24,000 bases of DNA from an uncultured Coriobacteriaceae bacterium (GCA_902798915.1 CADBYM010000007.1:109201-133200), one strand, 5' to 3'; positions 1 to 23,950 are shown, counted from the first letter of the stretch. Translations and numbers: made by a program. Notes: generated by a model not told the origin, from the sequence alone.

Positions 1-743
1 CGGCGATTGACGTCTCGCCCGAGAGCGCCCGAGCCCTGCCGATGAGCTACATCGAGTCATTCATCGAAGAGGATATGCATAAGGTTGACGAGCGACGGCG
101 TGACAAGGGCAAGATGGCGCGCCTCATGCGCTCGCTTGCCCGCAATGCCGAGCAGGCGGCGACCCCCAAGACGCTCATCAGAGACATGACGGCGGAAGAC
201 GGGGCCACGCCCCTAGCGGACGAGACGATCGACGACTACATGGACGTCCTCGAGCGCACCTTCATTCTCGAGAAGATCGGTCCGTGGAGCCCCAACGTCC
301 GCTCGCCGCTGCGCATAAACAAGAAGCCCAAGTACCACTATACAGACCCCTCTCTCGCGGCCGCCGTATTGGGGGTGACTCCCGACATGCTGCTGGGAGA
401 CTTCGAGACGTTCGGCTTCCTGTTCGAGGGCATGTGCACGCGCGACCTGCTCGTGTACGCGCAGGCAATTGGCGGTAGGTTGTACTACTACCGCGACCGC
501 GATGACCTGGAGATTGACGCCGTCATCGAGGCGTCGGACGGTGCCTGGGGAGGCTTGGAGATAAAGCTTGGCCACAACCAGGTAGACAAGGCCGCCGCGA
601 ACCTTCGGCGTGTGCGCGACAAGGTCGTTGCGGCGGGCGGGAGGCCGCCCTCATTCCTCGCTGTGGTCGAGGGGCTTGGCACCTATGCATATACGCGCCA
701 AGATGGCGTGCATGTCGCGCCGATTCAAACGCTCTGCCCGTGA
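1..743 (+). CDS. AAA+ ATPase with DUF4143-like C-terminal domain, 3' part only (5' end outside window)
   Basis: The reading frame is open from the window edge (listed ORF 42..743). The about 230 aa align along their length with the C-terminal half of the complete Walker-A/B ATPase at 14454..15710. Shared blocks are DPS(L/I)AAA.LG, TFG.LFE..C..DL.VYA, LE.DAV and (L/M)E(I/V)KLG. Identity is roughly 35-40% by eye. Confidence 0.75.
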   Translation, partial: AIDVSPESARALPMSYIESFIEEDMHKVDERRRDKGKMARLMRSLARNAEQAATPKTLIRDMTAEDGATPLADETIDDYMDVLERTFILEKIGPWSPNVRSPLRINKKPKYHYTDPSLAAAVLGVTPDMLLGDFETFGFLFEGMCTRDLLVYAQAIGGRLYYYRDRDDLEIDAVIEASDGAWGGLEIKLGHNQVDKAAANLRRVRDKVVAAGGRPPSFLAVVEGLGTYAYTRQDGVHVAPIQTLCP

Positions 744-877: not shown

Positions 878-1096
878 AGTTATCATGTCTACCAGCACAA
901 ACGCGGTCTAGTGACGTCATGACGTCATCCGACTTCGAATAAGGCGACGTCACGGGTGCGGGAACGGTGCCCGTGACGTCGCTTTGATGTCTGCAGGGAA
1001 GATAGTCAAAACTGCGGAGGAGACAGGAGACGTGGCGGAGCGTCTCGAGCCACCACAGGCCACCTCTATGACGCCTTTCAGATTGAGTGGGAGTAA
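878..1096 (+). repeat. Family-R repeat, copy A (core only; diverges right after the GATTGAGTGGGAGTAA box)
   Basis: Alignable by eye to the copies at 10125, 13960, 16232, 18193 and 23745. It contains tgacgtcatgacgtca, the 13-bp perfect hairpin gcgacgtcacggg(944..956)/cccgtgacgtcgc(970..982), and cagattgagtgggagtaa at 1079..1096. Confidence 0.85.
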
Positions 1097-1153
1097 ACCG
1101 GAGGGCAAAACACTCTTTCACGGTTTACCCCAAAAACACAAGATGCAACGCGA

Positions 1154-3567: not shown

Positions 3568-6357
3568 ATGAAGGAACATTGGAAGTACAAAAAGCCGGTT
3601 GCGGTCGTCACCTCGATCGCGTTGGCGTTCTCGCTCGCGGTGGCTCCGAGGGTCGCGAGCGCCCGCGGCGCGGAAGACGAGCTCGCTGTTGGTACGATGG
3701 CCATGGACGGCATTCCCGAATGGGCGGTCGACGACGGTGCGGATGATTTCGCGCTCACCGCGCAATCGGCTCTGCCAAGCAAGTATGACCTGCGCAGCGA
3801 CGGCTTGGTGACGCCCGTGAAGAGCCAGTCCCCGTGGCGGGCGTGCTGGGCGTTCGCCGCGTTCGCCGGCATCGCCGCAGCCGAGACCTCGATGCTCTCG
3901 GCAACGGGTTTCACGGCTGAGGAGAGCCCGACAGACCTCTCCGAGCGCCATCTCGCATACTTTGCGCTGAATCCCGTTACCGAGGTCGACGATTCCGTAC
4001 AGGCGGGCGAGGGCATGTATACGATGAGCACCGACCGCAATGCGGCGTTCGACGCCGGCGGCGCGCCCGTGTACATCACCACCCTGTTTTCGCAAGGCGT
4101 CGGTCCGCAGGCGGAGGCAATGTTCCCGTACCGCGGGGTGGATGCGCAAGGGACGTCGCGCCTCAGCAACCAGGCGTTTGAAAGCGATCCGGAGGGCACC
4201 ACGCTTCTCCTGTATGCATCTGCAGAGGGCAAAACTGCGGACGAGTACAAGGGGACGCTGGAGAAGGAAGCAAGGGACACTGGCTCTACCTACGAAGAGG
4301 TGCTCAAACCTAAAATGGAGGAAGCTAAAAAGTACTGTGAAGGCGATTCCACCTATTTCTATCTTGACGACTGGACGATCCCCGCAACCGATGGCAGCGG
4401 TAACTCCAACCGCACGCTTACCCCCTTCATGACGTTGAGGGACGGCAACGTGCTGCCCGAGTACCAGACTATGGACGCGACTGGGACCGATGTGACTCCC
4501 AACCCTCAGAGCATCGCCGCCATGAAGCAGGAGCTGGTGAACGGCCACGGCGTCTCCATATCGTATAAGGCAGACAAGGCGTCACCCGGCGAGTCGGGTG
4601 ACTCGCGCTACATCAACCGCGATAATTGGGCCCAGTACACCTTCGAGATAGATAACGGCACCCATGCCGTGTGCATCGTCGGCTACGATGACGACTACCC
4701 GGCATCCAACTTCACGCATGACGTATTTGCAAGGGTGAAAGACGAAAGCGGTAGATACGTTCTCGCCAAGGACGCTGAGGGGAATCCTATTGTTGATCCC
4801 GATGCCACCGCAGCATCCACGCCTCCCGGTAACGGCGCGTGGATCGTGAAGAACAGCTGGGGTTCCGAGACCGACCAGACAACGGACGACCTCGGCAACG
4901 TGATCGGGACCGGCACCTATGGCGTGCGCGACGCGGATGGAAAGGCCACCGGGTACTTCTACCTCTCCTACTACGACAAGACCATCTCGCAGCCCGAGAC
5001 CATGACCTTCTCGCCCGATTTGCTGGACGCTGCCGGTGACTTCGAGGTCCTGCAGCACGACTACATGGCCGCGCAGGGCGGCTTCTACACCACGCCGACC
5101 ACAACTGACGTCACGAGCTCGGCGAACGTCTTCGAGGCACCGCAAGACCTCTCGATCAAGGCCGTCTCCACGCGCACGTCGGAAGAGAACCAACGCGTGA
5201 CCTTTGCCATCTACGAGCTAAAGGACGGCGCCACAGAACCCACCGACGGCACGATGCTCTACCGCACCTCGCGCAACTTCGAATATGCCGGTTTCCACCG
5301 CCTGGACCTCGATTGGGTCCTCGAAGTGAAGGCCGGGAAAAGGATCGCCGTCGTCTCGACCGCGTCCACCTTGGACGGCGGCGGCACGCGCCTCTATAGC
5401 GCTTCCGCGAACCAAGCAGCATTAACGAAACAGTCCGTGGAGTTTTTGAACGGGATGAGCGTGCCGGTGCCCATGTACGGCGAGGCGGTCGTGAACGAGG
5501 GGGAGAGCTTCCTGTTCTCGAACGGGCAATGGGTCGACTGGAGCGAGCATATTGCCGCGTTGCCACCAGTGGCAGGGGTCCCCATCCCGGGAGTTACGCT
5601 TCCCGGGGACTCCTACATCGAGCAGTTCCCCATCGACAACTTCTCCATCAAGCTGTATGCCGTGCCTGTGGAAATAACGCTCACGCACCAAGAGGCCAAA
5701 GCGGCCACCTGCACCGAGCCGGGCAACATCGAGTACTGGTACTACGACACGACCGACACATCCGAGGGTCAGAGGCGATACTACAAGGACCAAGACGGCA
5801 AGGAGGAGATCGAGCTGGCAGACACCGTTATCGCTCCGCTCGACCACAAGTGGGGGGCTTGGACGGAGCTCGATGGCGAGCAGCACCAGCGTGTGTGCGA
5901 GCGCGACTCGTCGCATGTGGAGAAGGCGGAACACGTTTGGGACGAGGGCGAGGTGACTACGGAGCCCACGGCCACGAACGACGGCGTGCGCACCTATATC
6001 TGCAAGGATTGCGGAGCGACCAAGACCGAGAGCATCCCCGCAACGGGCTCCGAGCAGAAGGGCGACGACGACAACGCCAAGACGGGCGATGCCGCAACGA
6101 CGGGAACGCCCAGCACCGGAGCTCCCACCAGGACGGGTGGTCCCGCAACGACGGGAACGCCCAGCACCGGAGTTCCCACCAGGACGTCCGGTACTAGCAG
6201 CGTCGCGGCGAAAGCGAATACGGGGCTGGCCAGCACCGGAGATTCCATGGCGGCGTTGCCGGCGCTTGCCGCAATGGGCCTGAGCGGCTTGGTTCTGCTC
6301 GTGGCGGGCAGCAGGATGCATGTCGGCCGCCGTCGTGACAAAGGGGATGAGTCTTAG
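3568..6357 (+). CDS. Cell-wall-anchored papain-family (C1) cysteine peptidase with an LAXTG sorting signal
   Basis: AGGAGA RBS upstream and a signal peptide (MKEHWKYKKPVAVVTSIALAFSLAVAPRVASA). C1 catalytic motifs are SQSPWRACWAFA (Cys), GTHAVCIVGYDD (His) and WIVKNSWG (Asn). The C-terminus has LASTG (6226..6240), a hydrophobic span and an RRRDK tail, which is a sortase class E-type LAXTG signal. Confidence 0.85.
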   Translation: MKEHWKYKKPVAVVTSIALAFSLAVAPRVASARGAEDELAVGTMAMDGIPEWAVDDGADDFALTAQSALPSKYDLRSDGLVTPVKSQSPWRACWAFAAFAGIAAAETSMLSATGFTAEESPTDLSERHLAYFALNPVTEVDDSVQAGEGMYTMSTDRNAAFDAGGAPVYITTLFSQGVGPQAEAMFPYRGVDAQGTSRLSNQAFESDPEGTTLLLYASAEGKTADEYKGTLEKEARDTGSTYEEVLKPKMEEAKKYCEGDSTYFYLDDWTIPATDGSGNSNRTLTPFMTLRDGNVLPEYQTMDATGTDVTPNPQSIAAMKQELVNGHGVSISYKADKASPGESGDSRYINRDNWAQYTFEIDNGTHAVCIVGYDDDYPASNFTHDVFARVKDESGRYVLAKDAEGNPIVDPDATAASTPPGNGAWIVKNSWGSETDQTTDDLGNVIGTGTYGVRDADGKATGYFYLSYYDKTISQPETMTFSPDLLDAAGDFEVLQHDYMAAQGGFYTTPTTTDVTSSANVFEAPQDLSIKAVSTRTSEENQRVTFAIYELKDGATEPTDGTMLYRTSRNFEYAGFHRLDLDWVLEVKAGKRIAVVSTASTLDGGGTRLYSASANQAALTKQSVEFLNGMSVPVPMYGEAVVNEGESFLFSNGQWVDWSEHIAALPPVAGVPIPGVTLPGDSYIEQFPIDNFSIKLYAVPVEITLTHQEAKAATCTEPGNIEYWYYDTTDTSEGQRRYYKDQDGKEEIELADTVIAPLDHKWGAWTELDGEQHQRVCERDSSHVEKAEHVWDEGEVTTEPTATNDGVRTYICKDCGATKTESIPATGSEQKGDDDNAKTGDAATTGTPSTGAPTRTGGPATTGTPSTGVPTRTSGTSSVAAKANTGLASTGDSMAALPALAAMGLSGLVLLVAGSRMHVGRRRDKGDES
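6094..6190 (+). repeat. 51-bp tandem duplication inside the C1 peptidase stalk (TTGTPSTG.PTRT.G x2)
   Basis: gcaacgacgggaacgcccagcaccggag(c/t)tcccaccaggacg occurs at 6094 and again at 6145. Confidence 0.8.
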
Positions 6358-8893: not shown

Positions 8894-9044
8894 ACAGGGA
8901 CTATTCTTCCATAGGAACAATAGGAACACGGCGGACGCTCCTCCAGCGTGGCATGCCAAAGAGCGCCTCTCCCCATACGGAGGGCAGCTATTGTATTGCA
9001 GAAGTATGTGCATCTGCGTTATCCTTTCGTCTGAGGTGATAATC

Positions 9045-9356
9045 ATGCAGAAGTCAGCAACGCTCAACCTACGGGTTGACCCTGCGGTGAAGCAGTCTGC
9101 CGAGTCCGTCCTGTCGCAGCTCGGCCTCTCCATGTCCACCGCCGTCGACATGTTCCTCCGACAGGTCTCACTTACGGGCGGCATACCGTTCAGGGTAGCC
9201 CTCCCGGAGGCCCCCAGCTCCATCGACGTGGGAACGCTGACCGACGAGCAGCTCCTCGAGGCGCTGTCGCGCGGCCTCGGGGAGGCGGACGAGGGCAGGG
9301 GAGTGGAGGCATCCGCAGCCTTCGCCCGCATGAGGGAGGAGCTCACTGGTGCGTAG
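9045..9356 (+). CDS. RelB/DinJ-family type II antitoxin (copy 1)
   Basis: MQKSATLNLRVDPAVKQSAESVLSQLGLSMSTAVDMFLRQV... is a typical RelB/DinJ ribbon-helix-helix N-terminus. GAGGTG RBS upstream. The 3' end overlaps the toxin start by 8 nt. The paralog at 18599..18910 differs at 15/103 aa by my count. Confidence 0.85.
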   Translation: MQKSATLNLRVDPAVKQSAESVLSQLGLSMSTAVDMFLRQVSLTGGIPFRVALPEAPSSIDVGTLTDEQLLEALSRGLGEADEGRGVEASAAFARMREELTGA

Positions 9357-9696
9357 GTACGAGGTGCGTCTCACGCCCTCTGCCATGGCACAGATCTCGG
9401 ACGCCGTCAGCTACGTGCGCGACGACCTCGGCATGCCGCAGGCGGCTACCAAGCTGCTTGAGGAGCTCGAGGAAGCGGTCATGGGCCTCGCGAACCTGCC
9501 CAATAGGTTCCATGCGGTTGACGCCGAGCCGCTGCTCTCGGCGGGGGTGTGCCGCATGAACGTTCGCAAATACTCTGTCTTTTACCGGGTGGACGAGGCG
9601 AGCCTGGCGGTGGACGTGTTCGCCGTGTTCTACGGGACACCCTCGGACGAGCGGGTCAGGAGGGCCTTCGCGAGCGGGACGGAGGACGGACGATGA
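9349..9696 (+). CDS. RelE/ParE-superfamily type II toxin (copy 1)
   Basis: 115 aa with a GTG start overlapping the antitoxin stop. The size, position and C-terminal ...VDVFAVFYGTPSDER pattern fit RelE/ParE-fold toxins. The paralog at 18903..19250 is about 70% identical by my count. Confidence 0.75.
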   Translation: MRRYEVRLTPSAMAQISDAVSYVRDDLGMPQAATKLLEELEEAVMGLANLPNRFHAVDAEPLLSAGVCRMNVRKYSVFYRVDEASLAVDVFAVFYGTPSDERVRRAFASGTEDGR

Positions 9697-10124
9697 ACAA
9701 GATCACGTGTATCTGCTTGGGCGTGAGGGACATGGCGAGGTCGGTTGCCTTCTACCGCGACGGTCTGGGCTTCCACACCGACTGTGTCGAGGACAGCCCC
9801 CGCGTCTGCTTCTTCGACACGCCGGGGACCAAGTTCGAGCTCTACCCGCTGGATCTGCTGGCGGAGGACATCTGCCCCGACGATCCACCCGCGACTGGCA
9901 GCGGCTTCGGCGGGATCACGCTGACGTACAACGTCGAGCGCAGGGAAGAGGTCGACGAGGTCGTCGAGCTCGTCCGGGCCGCGGGAGGCGCCATCGTGAA
10001 GGAGCCGCAGGAGGTCTTCTGGGGAGGCTACCACGCCTACTTCGCAGACCCGGACGGCTACTACTGGGAGGTCGCGTGGGGCCCGGACTTTAGGTATGAC
10101 GAGGACGGCATGCTGGTGTTCTAG
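9693..10124 (+). CDS. VOC-family (glyoxalase/bleomycin-resistance/dioxygenase fold) protein, copy 1
   Basis: 143 aa: MNKITCICLGVRDMARSVAFYRD.LGF ... FWGGYHAYFADPDGYYWEVAW, a typical VOC beta-alpha-beta-beta-beta module. Its ATG overlaps the toxin stop (ATGA). Paralogs lie at 15800..16231 and 19247..19678. Confidence 0.85.
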   Translation: MNKITCICLGVRDMARSVAFYRDGLGFHTDCVEDSPRVCFFDTPGTKFELYPLDLLAEDICPDDPPATGSGFGGITLTYNVERREEVDEVVELVRAAGGAIVKEPQEVFWGGYHAYFADPDGYYWEVAWGPDFRYDEDGMLVF

Positions 10125-10421
10125 ATTCTTGAATGCCTATGTTTACCAGCGCAGAAGCAGCCGGGCGACGTCATGACGTCACCCGACTTCGAGTGAAGCG
10201 ACGTCCGCGGGCGCGGAAAAGGTGCCCGTGACGTCGCTTTGACGTCCGCGGGGAGGATAGCTGAAAACAAGACGGACACTTACAGGTATGAAAGCGCATC
10301 CTGAGCCTCCGCGCGCTACCACAGCCGAGCTTTTCTGATTGAGTGGGAGTAAGACTAAGACCGCTACATTATTGTGCGATTCTCTAGGCGCTCCGGACGT
10401 GGCTCCGGGGCGCCTATTTCG
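10125..10421 (+). repeat. Family-R repeat, copy B, left part (interrupted by a group II intron)
   Basis: Starts directly after the VOC stop. It contains gacgtcatgacgtca, a hairpin with one imperfection, ctgattgagtgggagtaag, attgtgcgattctctagg and the terminator hairpin. Confidence 0.85.
10386..10419 (+). terminator. Intrinsic-terminator-like hairpin of repeat B (aggcgctccgg...ccggggcgcct + tattt)
   Basis: A 10-11 bp GC-rich stem followed by a T-rich tract. Homologous to the terminators at 14167 and 18428. Confidence 0.6.
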
Positions 10422-12393
10422 GTGTGCCGGGCATGGCACACGCCTAACGGGTGAAAGTCCCGAGCGCACCCGGCAGCGGGAAGCGCATAGCCAAGGGCAA
10501 GGGTGTCCGTCGCGAGGCGGAATCCGAAGGAAGCCGGAGGCGAAACCTCGGCCCGAGGGACACGAACCGCATCAGGCGGGCGCGGAGGGTGAGGCCGCCG
10601 AACAGGCCGAAGCCCCATAGCTGCACGGAATCCGCGGGCGTAAATGCGGCGGGCACGCGAGGCGAAAGGCGTGGGCCTTACCCCGGGAGGCCTCACGGGC
10701 GGGAAAAGGAGGCAAAGGCTGCGGCTTCGCCCACGGAGTGGGCCGCATCGACCGGGCGACCGGCATGCGAGCGACTGCACGCCCGCAGCAACAGCGAACC
10801 GTGAGGAGTCAGCAGAGGCCATAGTAGCGGCGACGCCGGCCGCGAAGGGCCGAACCCAGACGGAGGGAGCCACTGAGGGAGACCATGCGCACGGAAGAAG
10901 GCAGACAACTCCGCCTCGACCTGTTCGGGGAAGGGGGCCAGCCGGGATGGGTAGGGCCGGAAGCCCGAGAGGTACCGGAGGCTTCGACGCGCGCGCGGAG
11001 CACCGAAGCCGACGAACTCGAAGCAACCACAGGCAACACCGGGGACCTGCTCGAACGCATCTGCTCGTGGGAGAACATGAGCGAGGCGTGCGCACGCGTG
11101 GTGCGCAACGGCGGCGCGGGCGGCGTGGACGGCATGGGCGTGGCGGAGCTTCCCGCGTGGCTCGAAGCCAACCACGGGGCGCTGGCGGGCAGGATCCTCG
11201 GGGGGAGGTACCGGCCCGAGCCCGTGAGGCGGGTAGAGATACCCAAGGGGGAGAGGGGCAAGGTCAGGATGCTGGGCATACCCACGGCCGTGGACCGCAT
11301 GGCCCGGCAGGCGGTGGCGCAGCAGATGACGCCGGTATTCGAGCCGAGGTTCCACCGTGACTCCTACGGCTTCCGGCCCGGCAGGTCGGCGCACGACGCG
11401 CTGCTCGCGGTCAAGCGACACGCCGACGCGGGGAACGCGTGGGCGGCGTCGATGGACCTCGAGCGCTTCTTCGACACGGTCAACCAGTCCAAGCTGGCGC
11501 GGCTGCTGTCGGACGCGCTGGCCGACAGGCGGGTGGTGTCGCTCGTGCACCGCTTCCTGATGGCGGGCGTGGTCGTGGACGGCATCGCTGAGCCGACGCC
11601 GGAGGGCACCCCGCAGGGAGGGCCGCTCTCGCCGCTGCTCGCCAACGTCCTGCTCAACGAGCTGGACTGGGAGCTGGAGGGGCGCGGGCACGCCTTCGTG
11701 CGCTACGCGGACGACTTCATCATCCTCAAGCGCAGCCGCAAGGCGGCGGAGAGGGCGATGGAGTCCGTGACGAAGTTCGTGGAGGGAAGGCTGTTCCTGC
11801 GGGTCAACCGCGAGAAGTCGTTCGTCGCGCACATATCAAGAGGCGTCAGGTACCTCGGATACGCCTTCTACGGGAGCGGCGGGGAGCTGCGCTTTCGCGT
11901 GCACCCCAAGTCGCTCGCATCACTGAAGGGCAAGGTCCGGGAGATACTGTCGCGCTCCAACGGCCGGTCGCTCGACTGGCGCAGGCACCGCCTGCGCTGC
12001 CTCGCGAACGGCTGGGTCGGCTACTTCCGGCTCGCCGACATGCGGGGCGTCCTGCGCGACCTCGACTCGTGGGTCCGACGCAAGATACGCTGCGTGTACT
12101 GGAAGTGCTGGAAGCGGAATCGGACCAAGTTCCGCGCCCTCGTGCGCCTCGGCGTCGGCCGTGGGCAGGCGTGGCAGTGGGCGAACTCGCGGAAGGCCTA
12201 CTGGCGCGTGGCGGGAAGCGGCATCCTCTGCCGGGCGTTGAACAACTCAAAGCTCGCCGAGCTAGGCTGGACCCTCTTCTACCCCCGCTACCTGCTATTA
12301 TCGTGTTAAGTCTGGGAACCGCCGTGTACCGAACGGTACGCACGGTGGTGTGGGAGGACGGCGCGCCGACTAACGGCGCGCCTCCTACCCGAT
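10422..12393 (+). mobile_element. Group II intron (bacterial class C-like), complete, about 1.97 kb
   Basis: 5' GTGTG lies at 10422, directly after the terminator T-tract. An RT/maturase ORF sits internally. Domain V (12318..12349) has a CGC triad, a 2-nt AC bulge and a tetraloop. Domain VI (12352..12390) has a bulged A at 12387, 7 nt from the 3' end (...CCUACCCGAU). The boundaries are supported by alignment to uninterrupted repeat copies C and E. Confidence 0.85.
10885..12309 (+). CDS. Group II intron-encoded reverse transcriptase/maturase (no recognisable C-terminal HNH endonuclease domain)
   Basis: RT blocks include GVDGM, RVEIPKGERGKVRMLGIPT, SYGFRPGRSAHDAL, DLERFFD, TPQGGPLSPLLANV and FVRYADDFIIL (YADD). 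A maturase X-like region (GWVGYF...) follows. The start codon is uncertain. Confidence 0.9.
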   Translation: MRTEEGRQLRLDLFGEGGQPGWVGPEAREVPEASTRARSTEADELEATTGNTGDLLERICSWENMSEACARVVRNGGAGGVDGMGVAELPAWLEANHGALAGRILGGRYRPEPVRRVEIPKGERGKVRMLGIPTAVDRMARQAVAQQMTPVFEPRFHRDSYGFRPGRSAHDALLAVKRHADAGNAWAASMDLERFFDTVNQSKLARLLSDALADRRVVSLVHRFLMAGVVVDGIAEPTPEGTPQGGPLSPLLANVLLNELDWELEGRGHAFVRYADDFIILKRSRKAAERAMESVTKFVEGRLFLRVNREKSFVAHISRGVRYLGYAFYGSGGELRFRVHPKSLASLKGKVREILSRSNGRSLDWRRHRLRCLANGWVGYFRLADMRGVLRDLDSWVRRKIRCVYWKCWKRNRTKFRALVRLGVGRGQAWQWANSRKAYWRVAGSGILCRALNNSKLAELGWTLFYPRYLLLSC

Positions 12394-12440
12394 TGCTTTG
12401 AGGGGGCTCTTGTAGCTGCTAGCCAAACGCAGATTACGAA
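12394..12440 (+). repeat. Family-R repeat, copy B, right part (3' exon side of the intron)
   Basis: tgctttgagggggctcttgtagctgctagccaaacgca aligns with tgcttcttggggactcgcgcgcgttttatccaaacgca (copy E) and tgcactgaggggactcgtgtgtctgtctacctaacgcg (copy C). Confidence 0.7.
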
Positions 12441-13909: not shown

Positions 13910-13959
13910 CGGCCCATGTCGATCGACGATGACCATGTGAAGCGCGACGGGAGAACTGG

Positions 13960-14258
13960 CCATCGCGCCAACGCGTTTCTGATCGGGTGGCGTCACGGGT
14001 GCGGAAACGGTGCCCGTGACGTCGCTTTGACGTCCGCAGAGAGGATGGCCAGAGCTACGACGGACAATACGGATTCAAGAGCGCATTTCGAGCCACGACG
14101 AGCAACCACTGCCACACGATTCTGATTGAGTGGGAATAGGGCTTCTACATAATTGTGCGATTCTCCAGGCGCTCCGGACGTGGCTCCGGGGCGCCTTTTT
14201 GGTGCACTGAGGGGACTCGTGTGTCTGTCTACCTAACGCGAACGGCTGTTTTTCTGGT
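13960..14258 (+). repeat. Family-R repeat, copy C (full length but with a ~37-bp internal deletion between GACGTCA cores)
   Basis: cgcgccaacgcg..tcgggtggcgtca|cgggtgcggaaacggtgcccgtgacgtcgctttgacgtcc. Also ctgattgagtgggaatagg, ctacataattgtgcgattctccagg, the terminator, and the gaggggactcgtgtg...cctaacgcgaacgg tail. Confidence 0.8.
14167..14200 (+). terminator. Intrinsic terminator within repeat C (aggcgctccgg-acgtggct-ccggggcgcct + TTTTT)
   Basis: GC-rich stem with one G.U pair, followed by five T. Confidence 0.7.
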
Positions 14259-15710: not shown

Positions 15711-15799
15711 GGAGCGTGCAATCATCAAGTGTTCCCATATGAGTAAAGCCTGCCAGCTGAACGAAGAAGGATGTCATTATGAATCATGAGGGATGCCAG

Positions 15800-16231
15800 A
15801 TGAACAAGATCACCTGCATATGCCTGGGCGTGAGAGACATGGCGAGGTCGGTTGCCTTCTACCGCGACGAGCTTGGGTTCAAGACTGACTGCGTGGAGGA
15901 CAGCCCTCGCGTCTGCTTCTTCGATACGTCGGGGACCAAGTTCGAGCTGTACCCGCTGGACCTGCTGGCGGAGGACATCTGCCCTGACGACCCTCCGATG
16001 ATCGGCGGCGGCTTCGGCGGCATCACGCTGGCGTACAACGTCGCCAGGCGGGAAGAGGTCGACGAGGTGGTCGAGCTCGTCCGCGCTGCCGGCGGCACCG
16101 TCGTCAAGGAGCCCCAGGAGGTTTTCTGGGGAGGCTACCACGCGTACTTCGCGGACCCCGACCGCTACTACTGGGAGGTTGCCTGGGGCCCGGACTTCGA
16201 GTACGACGAGGATGGCATGCTGGTGTTCTAG
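15800..16231 (+). CDS. VOC-family protein, copy 2
   Basis: 143 aa, differing from copy 1 at 12/143 residues by my count. An upstream in-frame ATG at 15779 is an alternative start. The repeat begins right after the stop. Confidence 0.85.
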   Translation: MNKITCICLGVRDMARSVAFYRDELGFKTDCVEDSPRVCFFDTSGTKFELYPLDLLAEDICPDDPPMIGGGFGGITLAYNVARREEVDEVVELVRAAGGTVVKEPQEVFWGGYHAYFADPDRYYWEVAWGPDFEYDEDGMLVF

Positions 16232-16537
16232 AATCACCATGTCTACCAGCCCAAACGCAGTCGCTTGACTCATGACGCCGCCCGGCTCCAAGTGAGGCGA
16301 CGTCACGGGTGCGAGAACGGTGCCCGTGACGTCGTTTTGACGTCCGTAGGGAGGGTGGTCAAAACCACGGTAGAGACAAGAGATGCGACGGAGCATCTCG
16401 AACCACCGCGAGCCGCCACGGCCACGCAATCCTGATCGAGTGGGAGTAGGGCCGCTACAGAATTGTGCGATTCTCTAGGCGTCTCGAAGGGACTCGTGTG
16501 CCTGCAAGCCTAACGCGAGCGGTCGTATTTCCGGTCG
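16232..16537 (+). repeat. Family-R repeat, copy D (terminator hairpin deleted; tail retained)
   Basis: ctaccagcccaaacgcag..., hairpin 16297..16335, cctgatcgagtgggagtagg, ctacagaattgtgcgattctctaggcg. It then runs directly into tctcgaagggactcgtgtgcctgcaagcctaacgcgagcggtcg. Confidence 0.85.
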
Positions 16538-17012: not shown

Positions 17013-17363
17013 ATGGATCTGTCAGACGACGAGAGGAGGGTGTACCGCGAGCTCGTGGGCAGGTCTCTACAGACTTCGGAGCTGACAGAGAGGACGGGCT
17101 TTGGGAGGACGAAGGTCCAGGAGATCCTCGAGAAGCTTGTCAAGAAGGGGTACGTCTCTGTCTCCGGCAGGGGAAGGGGAACGCGATATACCGCCACGAG
17201 GTGGGCTTCTCTGGTTGGACGTCGTCGCTACCAGCGCAAACGCAGTCGGGTGACGTCATCTTTCCGAATGACTGTGTGCTGTGCACACGTCCGTCCGGGA
17301 TACTCCCGGATCAGAGCCAACGGGAGTCAAAGGGACGGGTCATTTGACGCATGCGTTGGATGA
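17013..17363 (+). CDS. Small winged-helix DNA-binding protein (native 3' end probably replaced by repeat sequence)
   Basis: MDLSDDERRVYRELVGRSLQTSELTERTGFGRTKVQEILEKLVKKGYVSVSGRGRGTRYTA is a wHTH with the G.GRGTRY ending. That ending is common at the C-termini of AlbA_2/HATPase_c_4-type regulators. Beyond about 17210 the frame reads through repeat stub G. Confidence 0.45.
   Translation: MDLSDDERRVYRELVGRSLQTSELTERTGFGRTKVQEILEKLVKKGYVSVSGRGRGTRYTATRWASLVGRRRYQRKRSRVTSSFRMTVCCAHVRPGYSRIRANGSQRDGSFDACVG
17228..17259 (+). repeat. Family-R repeat, copy G (32-bp 5' stub; a highly degenerate remainder may extend to ~17470)
   Basis: ctaccagcgcaaacgcagtcgggtgacgtcat matches the family 5' end nearly perfectly. 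Downstream there are only faint echoes: ttccgaatga vs ttcgagtga, a gtgtgc-tgt-gcacac hairpin, and agattcaatgcgggaagg vs tgattgagtgggagtagg about 217 bp from the start. Confidence 0.6.
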
Positions 17364-17831: not shown

Positions 17832-18129
17832 GTTGCAGTACCTGCCGCTCTTCTGGGACGACCTCGAGCAGGCCGTGTTCTACGTCCGTGACGTGCTCAA
17901 GAACCCAGAGGCGGCCGAGCGCCTGCTCGACCGAACCGAGGCAGCTATCCTCGAACACGCCAAGGCACCAACCATGGCGCAGGTATACAAGACCACGCGG
18001 AATAGGCCGGTGCCGTACTACTGGTTCGCGGTGGGTAACTATATGGTCTTCTACGTGGTGTTAGATGATGTAATGGAGGTCCGCCGCTTCATATATGGTG
18101 CCCGCGATCTCACTAAGATGCTGCCCTGA
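17815..18129 (+). CDS. RelE/ParE-superfamily type II toxin
   Basis: 104 aa with a GTG start overlapping the antitoxin 3' end. ...YYWFAVGNYMVFYVVLDDVMEVRRFIYGARD fits the RelE/ParE beta-sheet core. Confidence 0.75.
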   Translation: MPTQYRLQYLPLFWDDLEQAVFYVRDVLKNPEAAERLLDRTEAAILEHAKAPTMAQVYKTTRNRPVPYYWFAVGNYMVFYVVLDDVMEVRRFIYGARDLTKMLP

Positions 18130-18192
18130 CCTACTAGGCCTAACAGACGTATGATGGCATTTCCTATGCCATTGAAGGGAAGAACAGCCTCG

Positions 18193-18525
18193 CTGCCAGC
18201 ATAAAAGCAGCATGCTGACGTCATGACGTCGCTCGACTCGAAGCGAAGTGACGTCACGGGCGCAGAATCGGTGCCCGTGACGTCGCTTTGACGTCCATAG
18301 GGAGGATAGCCAAAGACACGACTGGCAGCGTGAGCACGAGGGCTCGCGCCGAACTACCACAAACTACCCTAGCTACGTAATCCTGATTGAGTGGGAGTAG
18401 GACTGCTACATAATTGTGCGATTCTCCAGGCGCTCCGGACGTGGTTCCGGGGCGCCTTTTTGGTGCTTCTTGGGGACTCGCGCGCGTTTTATCCAAACGC
18501 ATGCAACGCGCAACGGCTGATACGA
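18193..18525 (+). repeat. Family-R repeat, copy E (most complete: core, promoter-like element, terminator and tail)
   Basis: GACGTC cores at 18217, 18225, 18250, 18279 and 18290. Hairpin 18248..18260/18274..18286. cctgattgagtgggagtaggactgctacataattgtgcgattctccagg. Terminator at 18428..18461. Tail ggggactcgcgcg...ccaaacgcatgcaacgcgcaacgg. Confidence 0.85.
18428..18461 (+). terminator. Intrinsic terminator within repeat E
   Basis: aggcgctccgg-acgtggtt-ccggggcgcct followed by TTTTT. Confidence 0.7.
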
Positions 18526-18598
18526 GCAAAGCCATATTGCTTCGTCTGTATTGTAAAAGTACCTGCAAATGCGTTATCCTCTTCTCGAGGTGATTATC

Positions 18599-18910
18599 AT
18601 GCAGAAGTCAGCGACGCTCAACCTGAGGGTAGATCCCGAGGTAAAGCAATCGGCCGAGTCCGTCCTGTCGCAGCTCGGGCTCTCCATGTCGACCGCCGTC
18701 GACATGTTCCTCCGCCAGGTATCCCTCACGGGAGGGATTCCCTTCAGGGTCGCCCTCCCCGAGGCACCACGCTCCGTCGACGTGGATTCGATGACGGACA
18801 GGCAGCTGTTCGAGGCCCTGTCGCGCGGCCTCCAGGAGGCCGAGGAGGGCAGGGGGGCAGAGGCGTCCGTTGCGTTCTCGCGCGTGAGGGAGGAGCTCCT
18901 CGGTGCGTAG
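18599..18910 (+). CDS. RelB/DinJ-family type II antitoxin (copy 2)
   Basis: About 85% aa identity to copy 1. In the first 57 codons I count about 23 synonymous differences and 1 non-synonymous. About 60 bp of upstream promoter region is shared with copy 1 (tgtattg.a.aagta..tgca..tgcgttatcct). Confidence 0.85.
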   Translation: MQKSATLNLRVDPEVKQSAESVLSQLGLSMSTAVDMFLRQVSLTGGIPFRVALPEAPRSVDVDSMTDRQLFEALSRGLQEAEEGRGAEASVAFSRVREELLGA

Positions 18911-19250
18911 CTACGAGGTGCGCGTCACTCCCTCGGCCTTGGCACAGATATGGGATGCCGTCCGCTACGTCCGGGACGAGCTCTGCATGCCGCAGGCGGC
19001 AGCCAGGCTGCTAGACGAGATTGAGGAGGTGGCCAGAGGCCTCTCGAGCATGCCGAACAGGTTCCATGCAGTTCGGGTGGAGCCGCTTCTCTCGTCGGGA
19101 GTTCGTCGCATGAACGTTCGTGGCTACTCGCTCTTCTACAGGCTCGACGAGACGAGCTCGACGGTGGACGTGTTAGCCGTGTTCTACGGCACCCCCTCGG
19201 ACGCGCGAATCAGAAGGGCCTTCCAGATTGGGACGGGGAGTGAGCAATGA
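18903..19250 (+). CDS. RelE/ParE-superfamily type II toxin (copy 2)
   Basis: Paralog of 9349..9696 with the same GTG start/antitoxin stop overlap (GTGCGTAG). Confidence 0.75.
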   Translation: MRSYEVRVTPSALAQIWDAVRYVRDELCMPQAAARLLDEIEEVARGLSSMPNRFHAVRVEPLLSSGVRRMNVRGYSLFYRLDETSSTVDVLAVFYGTPSDARIRRAFQIGTGSEQ

Positions 19251-19678
19251 ACAAGATCACCTGCATATGCCTGGGCGTGCGGGACATGGAGCGCTCCGTC
19301 CGCTTCTACTGCGACAAGTTGGGGTTCAGGACGGACTGCATGGAGGAAAGCCCCCGCGTCTGCTTCTTCGATACGCCGGGGACCAAGTTCGAGCTGTACC
19401 CGCTTGGCCTGCTGGCGGAGGACATCTGCCCCGACGATCCTCCTGCCGTCAGCGGCGGCTTTGGCGGCATCACGCTGGCGTACAACGTCGCCAGGAGAGA
19501 AGAGGTCGACGAGGTGATCGAGCTCGTCCGTGCCGCCGGCGGCACCGTCGTCAAGGAGCCCCAGCAGGTGTTCTGGGGAGGCTACCACGCGTACTTCGCG
19601 GACCCCGACGGCTACTACTGGGAGGTCGCCTGGGGGCCGGACTTCAAGTACGACGAGAATGGCATGCTGGTGTTTTAG
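19247..19678 (+). CDS. VOC-family protein, copy 3
   Basis: 143 aa, differing from copy 1 at 19/143 residues by my count. It has the same ATGA overlap with the toxin stop. Unlike copies 1 and 2, no repeat follows directly. Confidence 0.85.
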   Translation: MNKITCICLGVRDMERSVRFYCDKLGFRTDCMEESPRVCFFDTPGTKFELYPLGLLAEDICPDDPPAVSGGFGGITLAYNVARREEVDEVIELVRAAGGTVVKEPQQVFWGGYHAYFADPDGYYWEVAWGPDFKYDENGMLVF

Positions 19679-23446: not shown

Positions 23447-23744
23447 GCCGTCCTAAACAACACGCCCAACAACCTCGTCTTGGCTCTCAAAGTGAACGAC
23501 GCTTACAAACATGGCGGGATCCTCCTCCTGGGAATGGGCTCTCTTTACACCGTGGCATCGATTATCCCATCCACACAGGACACAAATTGGCTTTCGCGCA
23601 AGCCTCAAATGAATGGTGAGCCATGACCCTGAGCATCATAGAGAGCCCTATCGGGTATGGAGTGCAAAAAGGCTGGCCGTCGAAGCCTATCGGTGCGGGG
23701 AATGAAAGGGTGCCGCTTCCAGCAATTGTAAGGAAGACTGTACT

Positions 23745-23950
23745 CATCAGCGCAAACGTAGTCGGGTGACATGATGTCGCCCGACTTCGAGTGAGGTGAC
23801 GTCACGGGTGCGAAAAGGGTTCCCTTGACGTCGTTTTGACGTCCGTAGGGAAGAAAGTCGGAGCTCAAGGTGGGCAACACGGACACGAGAGCGACTGCCC
23901 GACCACTCCGAACAACCGCAGCCACGCAATTCAGATTGGGTGGGAGTAGG
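23745..23950 (+). repeat. Family-R repeat, copy F (core only; diverges right after the GATTGGGTGGGAGTAGG box into AT-rich DNA)
   Basis: catcagcgcaaacgtagtcgggtgacatgatgtcgcccgacttcgagtgaggtgacgtcacggg...cccttgacgtcgttttgacgtccgtaggg...cagattgggtgggagtagg. Confidence 0.8.

Follow-up and report, generated by a model that had tools for sequence, protein, structure and literature searches.

The window (the whole stretch of DNA that was analysed, 24 kb) carries cargo genes that are annotated on the + strand, together with a few unannotated minus-strand genes called near 22.3-23.4 kb. The annotated genes are accessory in kind and include three RelB/Phd-ParE pairs, three glyoxalase/Ble-like genes and the remnant of another, MatE, a papain/lectin protein, DUF4143/AAA_14 ATPases, and an Eco57I-type methylase together with an XhoI endonuclease. 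The window does not encode a recombinase. Six copies (A-F) of a repeat and one 34-nt remnant are also present. The original prediction referred to copies A to F and overlooked the remnant at 17225-17258. When all copies were lined up on a short conserved box, the repeat was found to be modular: M1 (~200 nt, containing the GACGTC sites) and M2 (~100-125 nt) meet at a 12-nt core, giving a true length of ~340 nt rather than ~270 nt. M2 begins with GACCGCTACATAATTGTGCGATTCTCCAGGCG, passes a terminator, and ends in ..GCCTAAC. The copies, and the cargo that follows copy E, are located as follows.

889..1096, + strand: copy A, M1 and core (1085-1096), then a truncated 'class b' flank and no M2; a presumed attR-type junction.
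10143..10421, + strand: copy B, M1, core (10341-10352) and M2 until 8 nt beyond the terminator; M1 and core portion, 10143-10352.
13934..14237, + strand: copy C, M1, core (14128-14139) and M2 with its terminator at 14167-14196; M1 and core portion, about 13934-14139.
16243..16514, + strand: copy D, M1, core (16438-16449) and M2 with a deleted terminator hairpin; M1 and core portion, 16243-16449.
17225..17258, + strand: M1 remnant, the first 34 nt, broken at the centre of palindrome 1; a presumed decayed junction.
18193..18400, + strand: copy E, M1 and core portion.
18569..19678, + strand: cargo of the unit after copy E (RelB, ParE and glyoxalase/Ble-like).
23744..23949, + strand: copy F, M1 and core GGGTGGGAGTAG (23938-23949), then a different right flank.

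The copies are 75-95% identical over 270-340 bp. Signs of decay are seen in the 5' half of copy C, where the 5' part of M1 and palindrome 1 are degenerate, in the terminator loss of copy D, and in the 17225 fragment. Copy B is interrupted by a group II intron (10422-12391) inserted 8 nt past its terminator, and its M2 picks up again beyond the intron at 12392-12428. A recount of the GACGTC hexamers agreed exactly with the positions and spacings first given for copy E (starts at 18217, 18225, 18250, 18279 and 18290; spacings of 8, 25, 29 and 11) and copy B (10167, 10175, 10200, 10230 and 10241; spacings of 8, 25, 30 and 11). The hexamer occurs 35 times in the 24-kb window as compared with 11.5 +/- 3.3 times in shuffles, and GACGTCAC occurs 15 times as compared with 1.5, with 13 of the 15 lying within repeats. 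Alignment of the copies likewise reproduced palindrome 1, hairpin 2, the variable 13-nt loops and the box as they had been described, the exception being hairpin 2 of copy C, which was called perfect and has a 5' arm, GTGGCGTCACGGG, that gives two G.T positions. The repeat had been placed at 18193-18461; its start holds, and its end does not, as conservation of copy E continues past 18461 through the terminator and then GGGGACTCG..CCAAAC to ~18498. The parts of copy E to which we refer below are the following.

18193..18388, + strand: M1, the putative P arm of an att junction, with GACGTC at -172, -164, -139, -110 and -99 from the core.
18215..18232, no strand: palindrome 1, CTGACGTCA abutting TGACGTCGC; arm-site candidates 1 and 2, whose counterpart in sister elements is an inverted site near -175.
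18248..18286, no strand: hairpin 2, GTGACGTCACGGG, a 13-nt spacer and CCCGTGACGTCGC; arm-site candidates 3 and 4, inverted.
18279..18295, + strand: direct pair TGACGTCGCTTTGACGTC, candidate sites 4 and 5 at 11-bp spacing.
18389..18400, + strand: core GAGTGGGAGTAG, identical to the last three codons and stop of guaA (E-W-E-stop); the presumed crossover region.
18401..18498, + strand: M2, where the P' arm would start and the next unit would have its left end; it includes an intrinsic terminator (18428-18457 and a T run) and ends in the conserved GGGGACTCG..CCAAAC.

We scanned a genome collection with TGACGTCGYTTTGAYGTC and found the repeat in Atopobiaceae, Olsenella, Parafannyhessea and 'Coriobacteriaceae' MAGs and isolates from rumen and gut, often in several copies per contig. 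Searching the phage and plasmid collections with the repeat by blastn gave no match, and neither of two pattern scans of viral contigs produced a hit. Across 42 distinct copies from many genomes, the box CTGATTGAGTGGGA, which had been called near-invariant from the window, is indeed invariant or nearly so. Read in frame, the box (GATT-GAG-TGG-GAG-TAG) gives I-E-W-E-stop, and the 12-nt core within it, GAGTGGGARTAR, matches the guaA 3' end exactly (E-W-E-stop); genes that end in ...KP(P/I)AT(I/V)EWE-stop with GAGTGGGARTAR are GMP synthases by Pfam (GATase and GMP_synt_C). That the box equals the last codons and stop of guaA, and with them the presumed crossover core, was absent from the original prediction.

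Three classes of junction were found, and they have the core alone in common. A guaA-type gene end followed directly by M2 (guaA-core-M2) is present in at least 11 loci; M1-core-M2 is the arrangement of copies B to E in the window; and M1-core followed by one of several other flanks, as in related Atopobiaceae contigs, is the arrangement of copies A and F and of many loci. Some M2 copies follow unrelated gene ends without M1. The same 12-nt GAGTGGGARTAR is therefore the identity core common to the element ends and the target gene, as in an att site, and a core at a gene end is the signature of site-specific integration into a gene 3' end. We infer that the box is a crossover core copied from the last guaA codons and that strand exchange would occur within it. 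From comparison of these sequences, we consider it probable that the repeat is a ~340-bp att junction between mobile units stacked behind guaA by a tyrosine integrase in rumen and gut Atopobiaceae, with GACGTC as the likely arm sites.

The position of the junctions also bears on another account, namely that an intergenic or terminator module, or a MITE, has been passively duplicated and spread by homologous recombination or transposition and now lacks a function. Copies that are 75-95% alike could be recombined by RecA, and decay such as that of C (5' part), D (terminator) and the 17225 fragment would be natural for such a module. However, conservation across many species is block-wise and not uniform, with the sites and core invariant and the centre free; the breakpoints of the junctions coincide with the 12-nt guaA core; and the repeat is linked to a guaA-specific integrase clade, described below. 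Transposon ends are also not apparent: copies within a locus have the same orientation, full-length copies end at the core, and neither terminal inverted repeats in the alignment nor target duplications were found. We judge a passive module to be very improbable.

An integrase was sought over the element-bearing loci. An integrase-motif regex search of these loci yielded false positives only, and phmmer with E. coli XerD as query matched L052:5453-6526, a 357-aa tyrosine integrase with Arm-DNA-bind_4, SAM_3 and Phage_integrase domains. An integrase is missing from 48 of the 49 element-bearing 8-kb loci of the genome scan. Because neither the window nor these 48 loci encode one, activity on the units of the window would have to be exerted in trans. 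The genes that lie upstream of guaA are housekeeping genes. Locus L052 begins inside M2, immediately 3' of guaA. After M2 come a non-coding conserved stretch with GATGACGTCAAAACGACGTCACGG..GGACGTCACG, a Dcm/NgoMIV restriction-modification pair, a MobA/VirD2 relaxase, NikA, the integrase (Int), an Xis-like ORF and a divergent Xre.

Using the L052 integrase as query, we identified 562 relatives in metagenome contigs. The closest, with 78% identity, is encoded in L100, a complete single insertion on a 10-kb contig. At the left end of this insertion, guaA (..ATIEWE-stop) is joined through GAGTGGGAATAG to M2, which is followed by a non-coding stretch of the L052 type; the genes are ordered relaxase, AAA_25, NikA, Int (Arm-DNA-bind_4, SAM_3 and Phage_integrase), Xis-like, Xre and ThsA-like; and at the right end, M1 is joined through GAGTGGGAATGA to a flank with a terminator hairpin. 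The anatomy of L100 shows that a mobilizable element with an integrase, inserted at guaA, has M2 at its left end and M1 at its right end, and both L100 and L052 have a cognate integrase within an element bounded by these ends. The integrase clade has the same target elsewhere: in ~40 loci encoding relatives of 55-59% identity, the guaA end lies ~1.1 kb upstream of int, and these guaA-adjacent elements are bounded by direct 12-bp repeats, GAGTGGGAATAA.

Integrase-less insertions occupy the same position. In L061, from Parafannyhessea umbonata, a 4-kb integrase-less cargo of Dcm, Eco29kI and ApeA lies between guaA-core-M2 and M1-core. In a sister Atopobiaceae species, contigs that encode an identical GuaA protein are hypervariable downstream of guaA between samples, where they contain integrase-bearing elements with GmrSD, DUF4238 or SNF2 cargo, or a type III restriction-modification/ICE-like insert; L181 of this species has two tandem integrase-less units with the core between them.

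An integrase with an arm-binding domain of its own is expected to have arm-type sites in its att site. We compared the repeated motifs of the element groups, which are 7 bp long in the relatives and differ by subfamily, by their distances from the distal core.

Distant relatives: TGATAGC, TGATAAC, TGATACT or TGGCAAC; P arm at -136, -121 and -110; P' arm at +70 and +81.
Sister Atopobiaceae species: TTGTCCC; P arm at -175 (inverted), -125 and -113; P' arm at +290.
Repeat family of the window: GACGTC; P arm at -172/-164, -139, -110 and -99; P' arm at +307, +318 and +338 in L018 and L100.

A pair of sites at 11-12-bp spacing is common to all the element groups. The version in the window family is TGACGTCGCTTTGACGTC, and its counterpart in all relatives examined lies between -125 and -108. 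The five GACGTC sites are intact in 31, 35, 36, 40 and 33 of the 42 distinct copies, respectively. Because the geometry is fixed while the motif changes, as in co-evolving protein-DNA contacts, the GACGTC cores are most likely the arm-type sites to which the integrase would bind. They have the look of palindromes, kept by sequence and without covariation, because TGACGTCA reads the same on both strands and neighbouring sites are placed head-to-head.

The palindromic arms measure 13-15 bp, including CGGG/CCCG, which is longer than an arm site needs; they may be bound by a further protein, Xis or NikA, or may have an oriT function. Taken further, the palindromes might serve some other DNA transaction, either instead of arm binding or besides it, as an oriT for NikA and the relaxase or as sites bound by Xis or by the repressor Xre. 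Long inverted repeats are typical of oriTs. NikA and a MobA/VirD2 relaxase are encoded by family members, the palindromes exceed a 7-10-bp arm site, nearly all integrase-less units have kept M1, and an oriT would let conjugation mobilise those units. In some copies, AATCCTG directly precedes the core, and this is similar to YATCCTG, the MOBP nick consensus. However, the ATCCTG motif lacks conservation, with TTCTG, CCCTG and TTCAG as variants, and the palindromes lie ~100 nt away from it. The candidate Xre-type operators have another motif, AATCGAACA..TGTGCGG, and GACGTC is present in both arms at distances matching those of the arm sites in relatives with unrelated motifs. Such a role for the palindromes is accordingly one that we think unlikely, and we retain GACGTC as the candidate arm motif.

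Conserved stems with free loops had been taken as a sign of a folded nucleic acid. In the alignment of 42 distinct copies, the palindromes are paired at 93%, which equals the column-shuffled controls (500 shuffles), and the covariation analysis found no significant excess of double changes: 6 pairs had them as compared with 3.6 +/- 1.5 in the controls, and 59 of the 500 shuffles reached as many. Mismatches accumulate both ways, with G.T and A.C numbering 51 and 38 in palindrome 1 and 25 and 12 in hairpin 2. As pairing is at the shuffled level, covariation is lacking and both types of mismatch accumulate, we conclude that the palindromes are kept as sequence. Folding of the two strands as ssDNA, which had been suggested as a check, showed each to be far more stable than its shuffles (z = -5.3 and -5.1).

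These results weigh on the proposal of a structured RNA, in which a 3'-UTR element or sRNA would be transcribed with the upstream gene and end at the M2 terminator, with the hairpins as RNA stems. In every case the repeat lies in the sense orientation 3' of a stop codon and has an intrinsic terminator after it, its RNA fold is predicted to be very stable (-116 kcal/mol, z = -5.0), and the flanks of hairpin 2 can be extended by G.U pairs on the + strand only. Against this, the minus strand is equally foldable, A.C mismatches are almost as frequent as G.T, and covariation is not significant in the 42 copies, from which RNAalifold and our own helix scans recovered hairpin 2 alone and supported no helix in the variable centre. 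A scan of the window at the gathering thresholds of Rfam 15 returned the group II intron only, and a permissive scan (E <= 10) of 18100-18600 and the region downstream of guaA gave no credible match. guaA and the att junctions, moreover, account exactly for the box and the borders of the modules. An RNA function for the repeat is in our view very unlikely. The broader part of the original prediction, that this is a functional DNA-level element (a recombination site, a multi-site protein array on TGACGTCA-type sites, or both), agrees well with an att junction whose cores lie at the arm-site positions of related elements.

An attC-like ssDNA hairpin had also been put forward. Integron attC sites are imperfect palindromes with R''/L''...L'/R' boxes (RYYYAAC..GTTRRRY) that are recognised by IntI as folded ssDNA. 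Were the repeat an attC or another folded-ssDNA site, its hairpins would form from one strand and be read by structure, and the units of the window would be integron cassettes in an array. The array is cassette-like, with annotated cargo on the + strand of toxin-antitoxin, resistance and defence kinds; the repeat has long hairpins; and short AAC-stem-GTT hairpins start at the M2 end in several units. However, the palindromes are conserved in sequence and not in structure alone, as protein sites are; no R''/R' boxes bracket the repeat, and M1 lacks them; there is no IntI-type integrase, the linked recombinase being of the lambda/Tn916 type with an arm-binding domain; the array is anchored on guaA and not on attI; and the units are multi-gene and 2-9 kb long. 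The AAC..GTT hairpins after M2 are inconsistent, and the one before RelB overlaps a promoter-like TTGTAA-N17-TTATCC. We dropped these hairpins as attC candidates, as the GTTATCC element moves with the RelB cargo and is promoter-like, and IntI is absent. A folded-ssDNA site is thus extremely improbable. A dif/Xer site at the start of M2 was rejected by eye for its lack of XerD-arm similarity.

The units delimited by the att junctions recur in other genomes. The RelB-ParE-glyoxalase unit that follows copy E is found again, at 82-90% identity, beside M2 and/or M1 in L007, L091, L048, L079, L009 and L098 and at 8991-10124 in the window. Its left context is guaA directly in L007, a pseudo-guaA fragment in L075 and other sequence in L091, and in every case the core is the point of joining. 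The units with MatE and with Phd-ParE are likewise found in other genomes, and cassette content differs between strains, L098 being without the MatE unit. We read the window as a predicted tandem stack of at least six integrase-less units, each of the form [core-M2-cargo-M1-core]; the anchoring of such stacks on guaA is seen in related contigs. As in the accretion of cis-mobilizable elements (CIMEs), these are cargo-only units without a recombinase that lie between att sites, and in L052 and L100 the site is taken by relatives that have an integrase. The units of the window resemble CIMEs.

In the mechanism that we propose, a tyrosine integrase with an N-terminal arm-binding domain would recombine the att site of an element with the last 12 nt of guaA. 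The integrase would be supplied by integrative mobilizable members of the family, which also supply the Xis-like protein, NikA and the MobA/VirD2 relaxase. guaA would stay intact by virtue of the same 12 nt being brought by the element, and M2 would supply a replacement terminator. A first integration would create attL (guaA-core-M2) and attR (M1-core-flank), and a next integration into either attL or attR would create M1-core-M2, the attP-like repeat of the window. Integrase-less units may be mobilised in trans to this day.

Several observations sit less easily with an att junction. Repeats of 270-340 bp with 75-95% identity could be shuffled by homologous recombination as well, and such recombination between repeats surely also contributes to the rearrangements. 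The P'-arm GACGTC sites, which are seen in integrase-bearing elements, are missing from most integrase-less units, in which M2 goes directly into cargo. The palindromes, as noted above, exceed the need of an arm site, and a second protein or another function may act there. Among the guaA contexts examined, including contigs that share the identical GuaA protein, no unoccupied guaA site was found, and the assemblies showed no circular junction. Finally, the 'class b' flank looks native in L100, yet in the window, L007 and L075 more units lie beyond it.

A larger interpretation, which we offer as tentative, is that Atopobiaceae possess an integron-like platform for gene capture that employs a lambda/Tn916-type integrase rather than IntI and the last 12 nt of guaA as its entry site. 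Dozens of small integrase-less cassettes with defence, toxin-antitoxin and resistance genes, each with a complete, selected ~340-bp attP and GACGTC arm sites, might then circulate between species and be inserted, excised and reshuffled in trans by the integrases of a few mobilizable elements.

Recognition of the repeat as a probable att site has several uses. It gives an identity to an undescribed multi-copy repeat of rumen and gut Atopobiaceae and explains why assemblies break into short contigs here, and the guaA core with M1 and M2 provides a simple marker for the mobile gene pool. With its restriction-modification, ApeA, ThsA-like, GmrSD, Abi, toxin-antitoxin, MatE and Ble-like genes, the locus is a hotspot of defence and resistance functions in gut bacteria of livestock and humans. 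As the arm motif varies over the clade (TGATAGC, TGGCAAC, TTGTCCC and TGACGTC) at fixed spacing, the clade represents a natural experiment in integrase specificity and could be used to study or re-engineer the co-evolution of the integrase arm domain with its DNA site.

Our literature search found no description of the element family of the window. Tandem accretion of ICEs and IMEs with CIMEs has been reviewed, for example for ICESt1/ICESt3 at fda in Streptococcus thermophilus (PMC5704250). The likeness to ICESt1/ICESt3-type accretion extends to the target in the 3' end of a housekeeping gene, the tyrosine integrase, the retention of att sites by decayed or integrase-less units, and the entry of newcomers at attL or attR that gives rise to arrays with att repeats. 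The window family differs in its target, guaA, and in its host, the Coriobacteriia; its stack is long, with at least six junctions and a remnant in 24 kb; integrase-less units are the large majority, and the att arms are highly conserved across species. IMEs and islands at the guaA 3' end are listed as well: ATE-1 of Trueperella pyogenes, the Brucella suis IncP island and GIsul2 (PMC5704250; PMC9376610). Going by their descriptions, these share with the window family the guaA end, a tyrosine integrase and mobilisation functions in place of full conjugation. The passages of PMC5704250 that we consulted mention no multi-unit stacks for ATE-1, the Brucella IncP island or GIsul2.

With lambda attP and Tn916-type att sites, the repeat shares a large size (at least 340 bp), a short identity core, and arms in which a short motif recurs several times; the GACGTC cores of M1 number five, as do the arm sites of lambda. 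The arm motifs of lambda attP and Tn916-type att sites are bound by the separate N-terminal arm-binding domain of the integrase. In contrast to those sites, the motif in the window is itself palindromic and lies within long inverted repeats, the P'-arm sites are ~300 bp from the core, and the arm sites are candidates only. SCCmec, psi-SCC and SCC composite islands occupy the 3' end of rlmH (orfX) in staphylococci and employ serine recombinases (Ccr) and short repeats without arms. They too are tandem cassettes behind a housekeeping gene, many without a recombinase, with direct repeats that carry the integration-site sequence between them, whereas the window family has a tyrosine recombinase in place of a large serine recombinase and a different host phylum. 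Like integron arrays, the window has co-oriented, recombinase-less cassettes for toxin-antitoxin, resistance and defence functions, each with a recombination site; unlike them, it depends on another type of recombinase, on a double-stranded site with putative arm sites rather than a folded attC, and on a guaA core rather than attI, and its units are multi-gene with their own promoters and terminators. The window element thus apparently represents undescribed att sites of guaA-specific tyrosine-integrase IMEs and accreted CIMEs, a class that is already known. Its mechanism is an instance of known accretion and CIME formation rather than a new one, and what sets it apart is the length of the stack and the cassette-like nature of its units.

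The cargo of the stacked units (core-M2-cargo-M1-core) includes a set of glyoxalase/bleomycin-resistance-like (Ble-like) sequences, comprising three paralogues with 87–90% DNA identity and one 3′ remnant; their positions relative to M1, the ~200-nt GACGTC-bearing arm of the att-junction repeats (copies A–F), are as follows.

814-878: 65-nt 3′ remnant, immediately 5′ of copy A M1
9549-10124: gene, immediately 5′ of copy B M1
15779-16231: gene, immediately 5′ of copy D M1
19247-19678: gene, with no M1 after it

It is as if a glyoxalase/Ble-like gene were the customary final gene of a unit. Elsewhere in the cargo, the papain/lectin-domain ORF (929 aa, 3568-6357) contains an internal 51-bp tandem duplication, 90% identical, at 6077-6178.

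A further sequence, which we term class b, recurs 3′ of M1 plus core (..AAACACTCTTTCACGG..CGCAGGTCAGAAGTGGTG) and has a terminator hairpin at its end.

Class b flank: window 1097-1145; also in L100, L007, L009, L075, L058/L062, L044, L091 and L029

In L100, a complete single integrase-bearing element at guaA, class b looks like the native flank on the side distal to guaA; in the window, L007 and L075, more units lie beyond it. A conserved non-coding stretch of ~170 nt, containing AATCGAACAGTTTTGTGCGGAC, separates M2 (the terminator segment) from the +307 GACGTC sites of the P′ arm.

Conserved non-coding stretch: L018:3760-4010; L100, about 240-470 (reverse); L052:60-290

The intergenic region between the xis-like and xre genes (L052:6735-6800) carries the near-identical repeats TCGAACATATTTGTGCGGTC and TCGAACAAATATGTGCGGTC; they and AATCGAACAGTTTTGTGCGGAC probably serve as operators at which the Xre repressor of the element acts.

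At 14126-14153 and 18387-18414, a sigma-70-like promoter match (TTGAGT-16 nt-CATAAT) places its −35 hexamer within the 12-nt att core and its −10 within M2. The match ends only ~15 nt upstream of the terminator hairpin, and could be due to chance or could specify a very short transcript or an attenuator.

Some arrays contain internal pieces of the guaA 3′ end, frameshifted or duplicated, each followed by the core and then M2 or an element.

guaA 3′-end fragments: L075:204-300 (minus strand); L138:6741-7661

Imprecise excision may have brought them along; alternatively, they could serve as decoy att sites. A sister Atopobiaceae species, represented by human-associated samples (L180-L189, contigs encoding the GuaA protein P0049), has a highly variable hotspot of defence genes downstream of guaA, occupied alternatively by GmrSD, DUF4238, SNF2/ResIII, Abi_2, type III restriction-modification or an ICE-like insert. 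The elements of this species share the core of the window and have different arm motifs (TTGTCCC, TTTACTCCC).

A seventh copy in the window (17225-17258) consists of only the initial 34 nt of M1 (TCGCTACCAGCGCAAACGCAGTCGGGTGACGTCAT), breaking off precisely at the midpoint of palindrome 1, formed by the first two GACGTC cores, with unrelated sequence from there on; it looks like a rearrangement breakpoint at that midpoint. A strain variant (L098:1733-1900) lacks both the MatE unit and the group II intron of copy B, and its terminator is hybrid and duplicated (..GGCGCCTATTTCG joined to CGTGGTTCCGGGGCGCCTTTTT..), which may represent a recombination or deletion scar inside M2, or an assembly artefact.

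The intron itself (10422-12391) splits the M2 of copy B.

10506-10676 and 10784-10850: group II intron D1-D4, Rfam matches
10885-12309: intron RT/maturase ORF

An intron-free form of this M2 is present in L009 (TATTTCG followed directly by TGCTTTGAGGGGG). The insertion lies 8 nt 3′ of the M2 terminator hairpin; the typical insertion point of class C introns is directly after a terminator.
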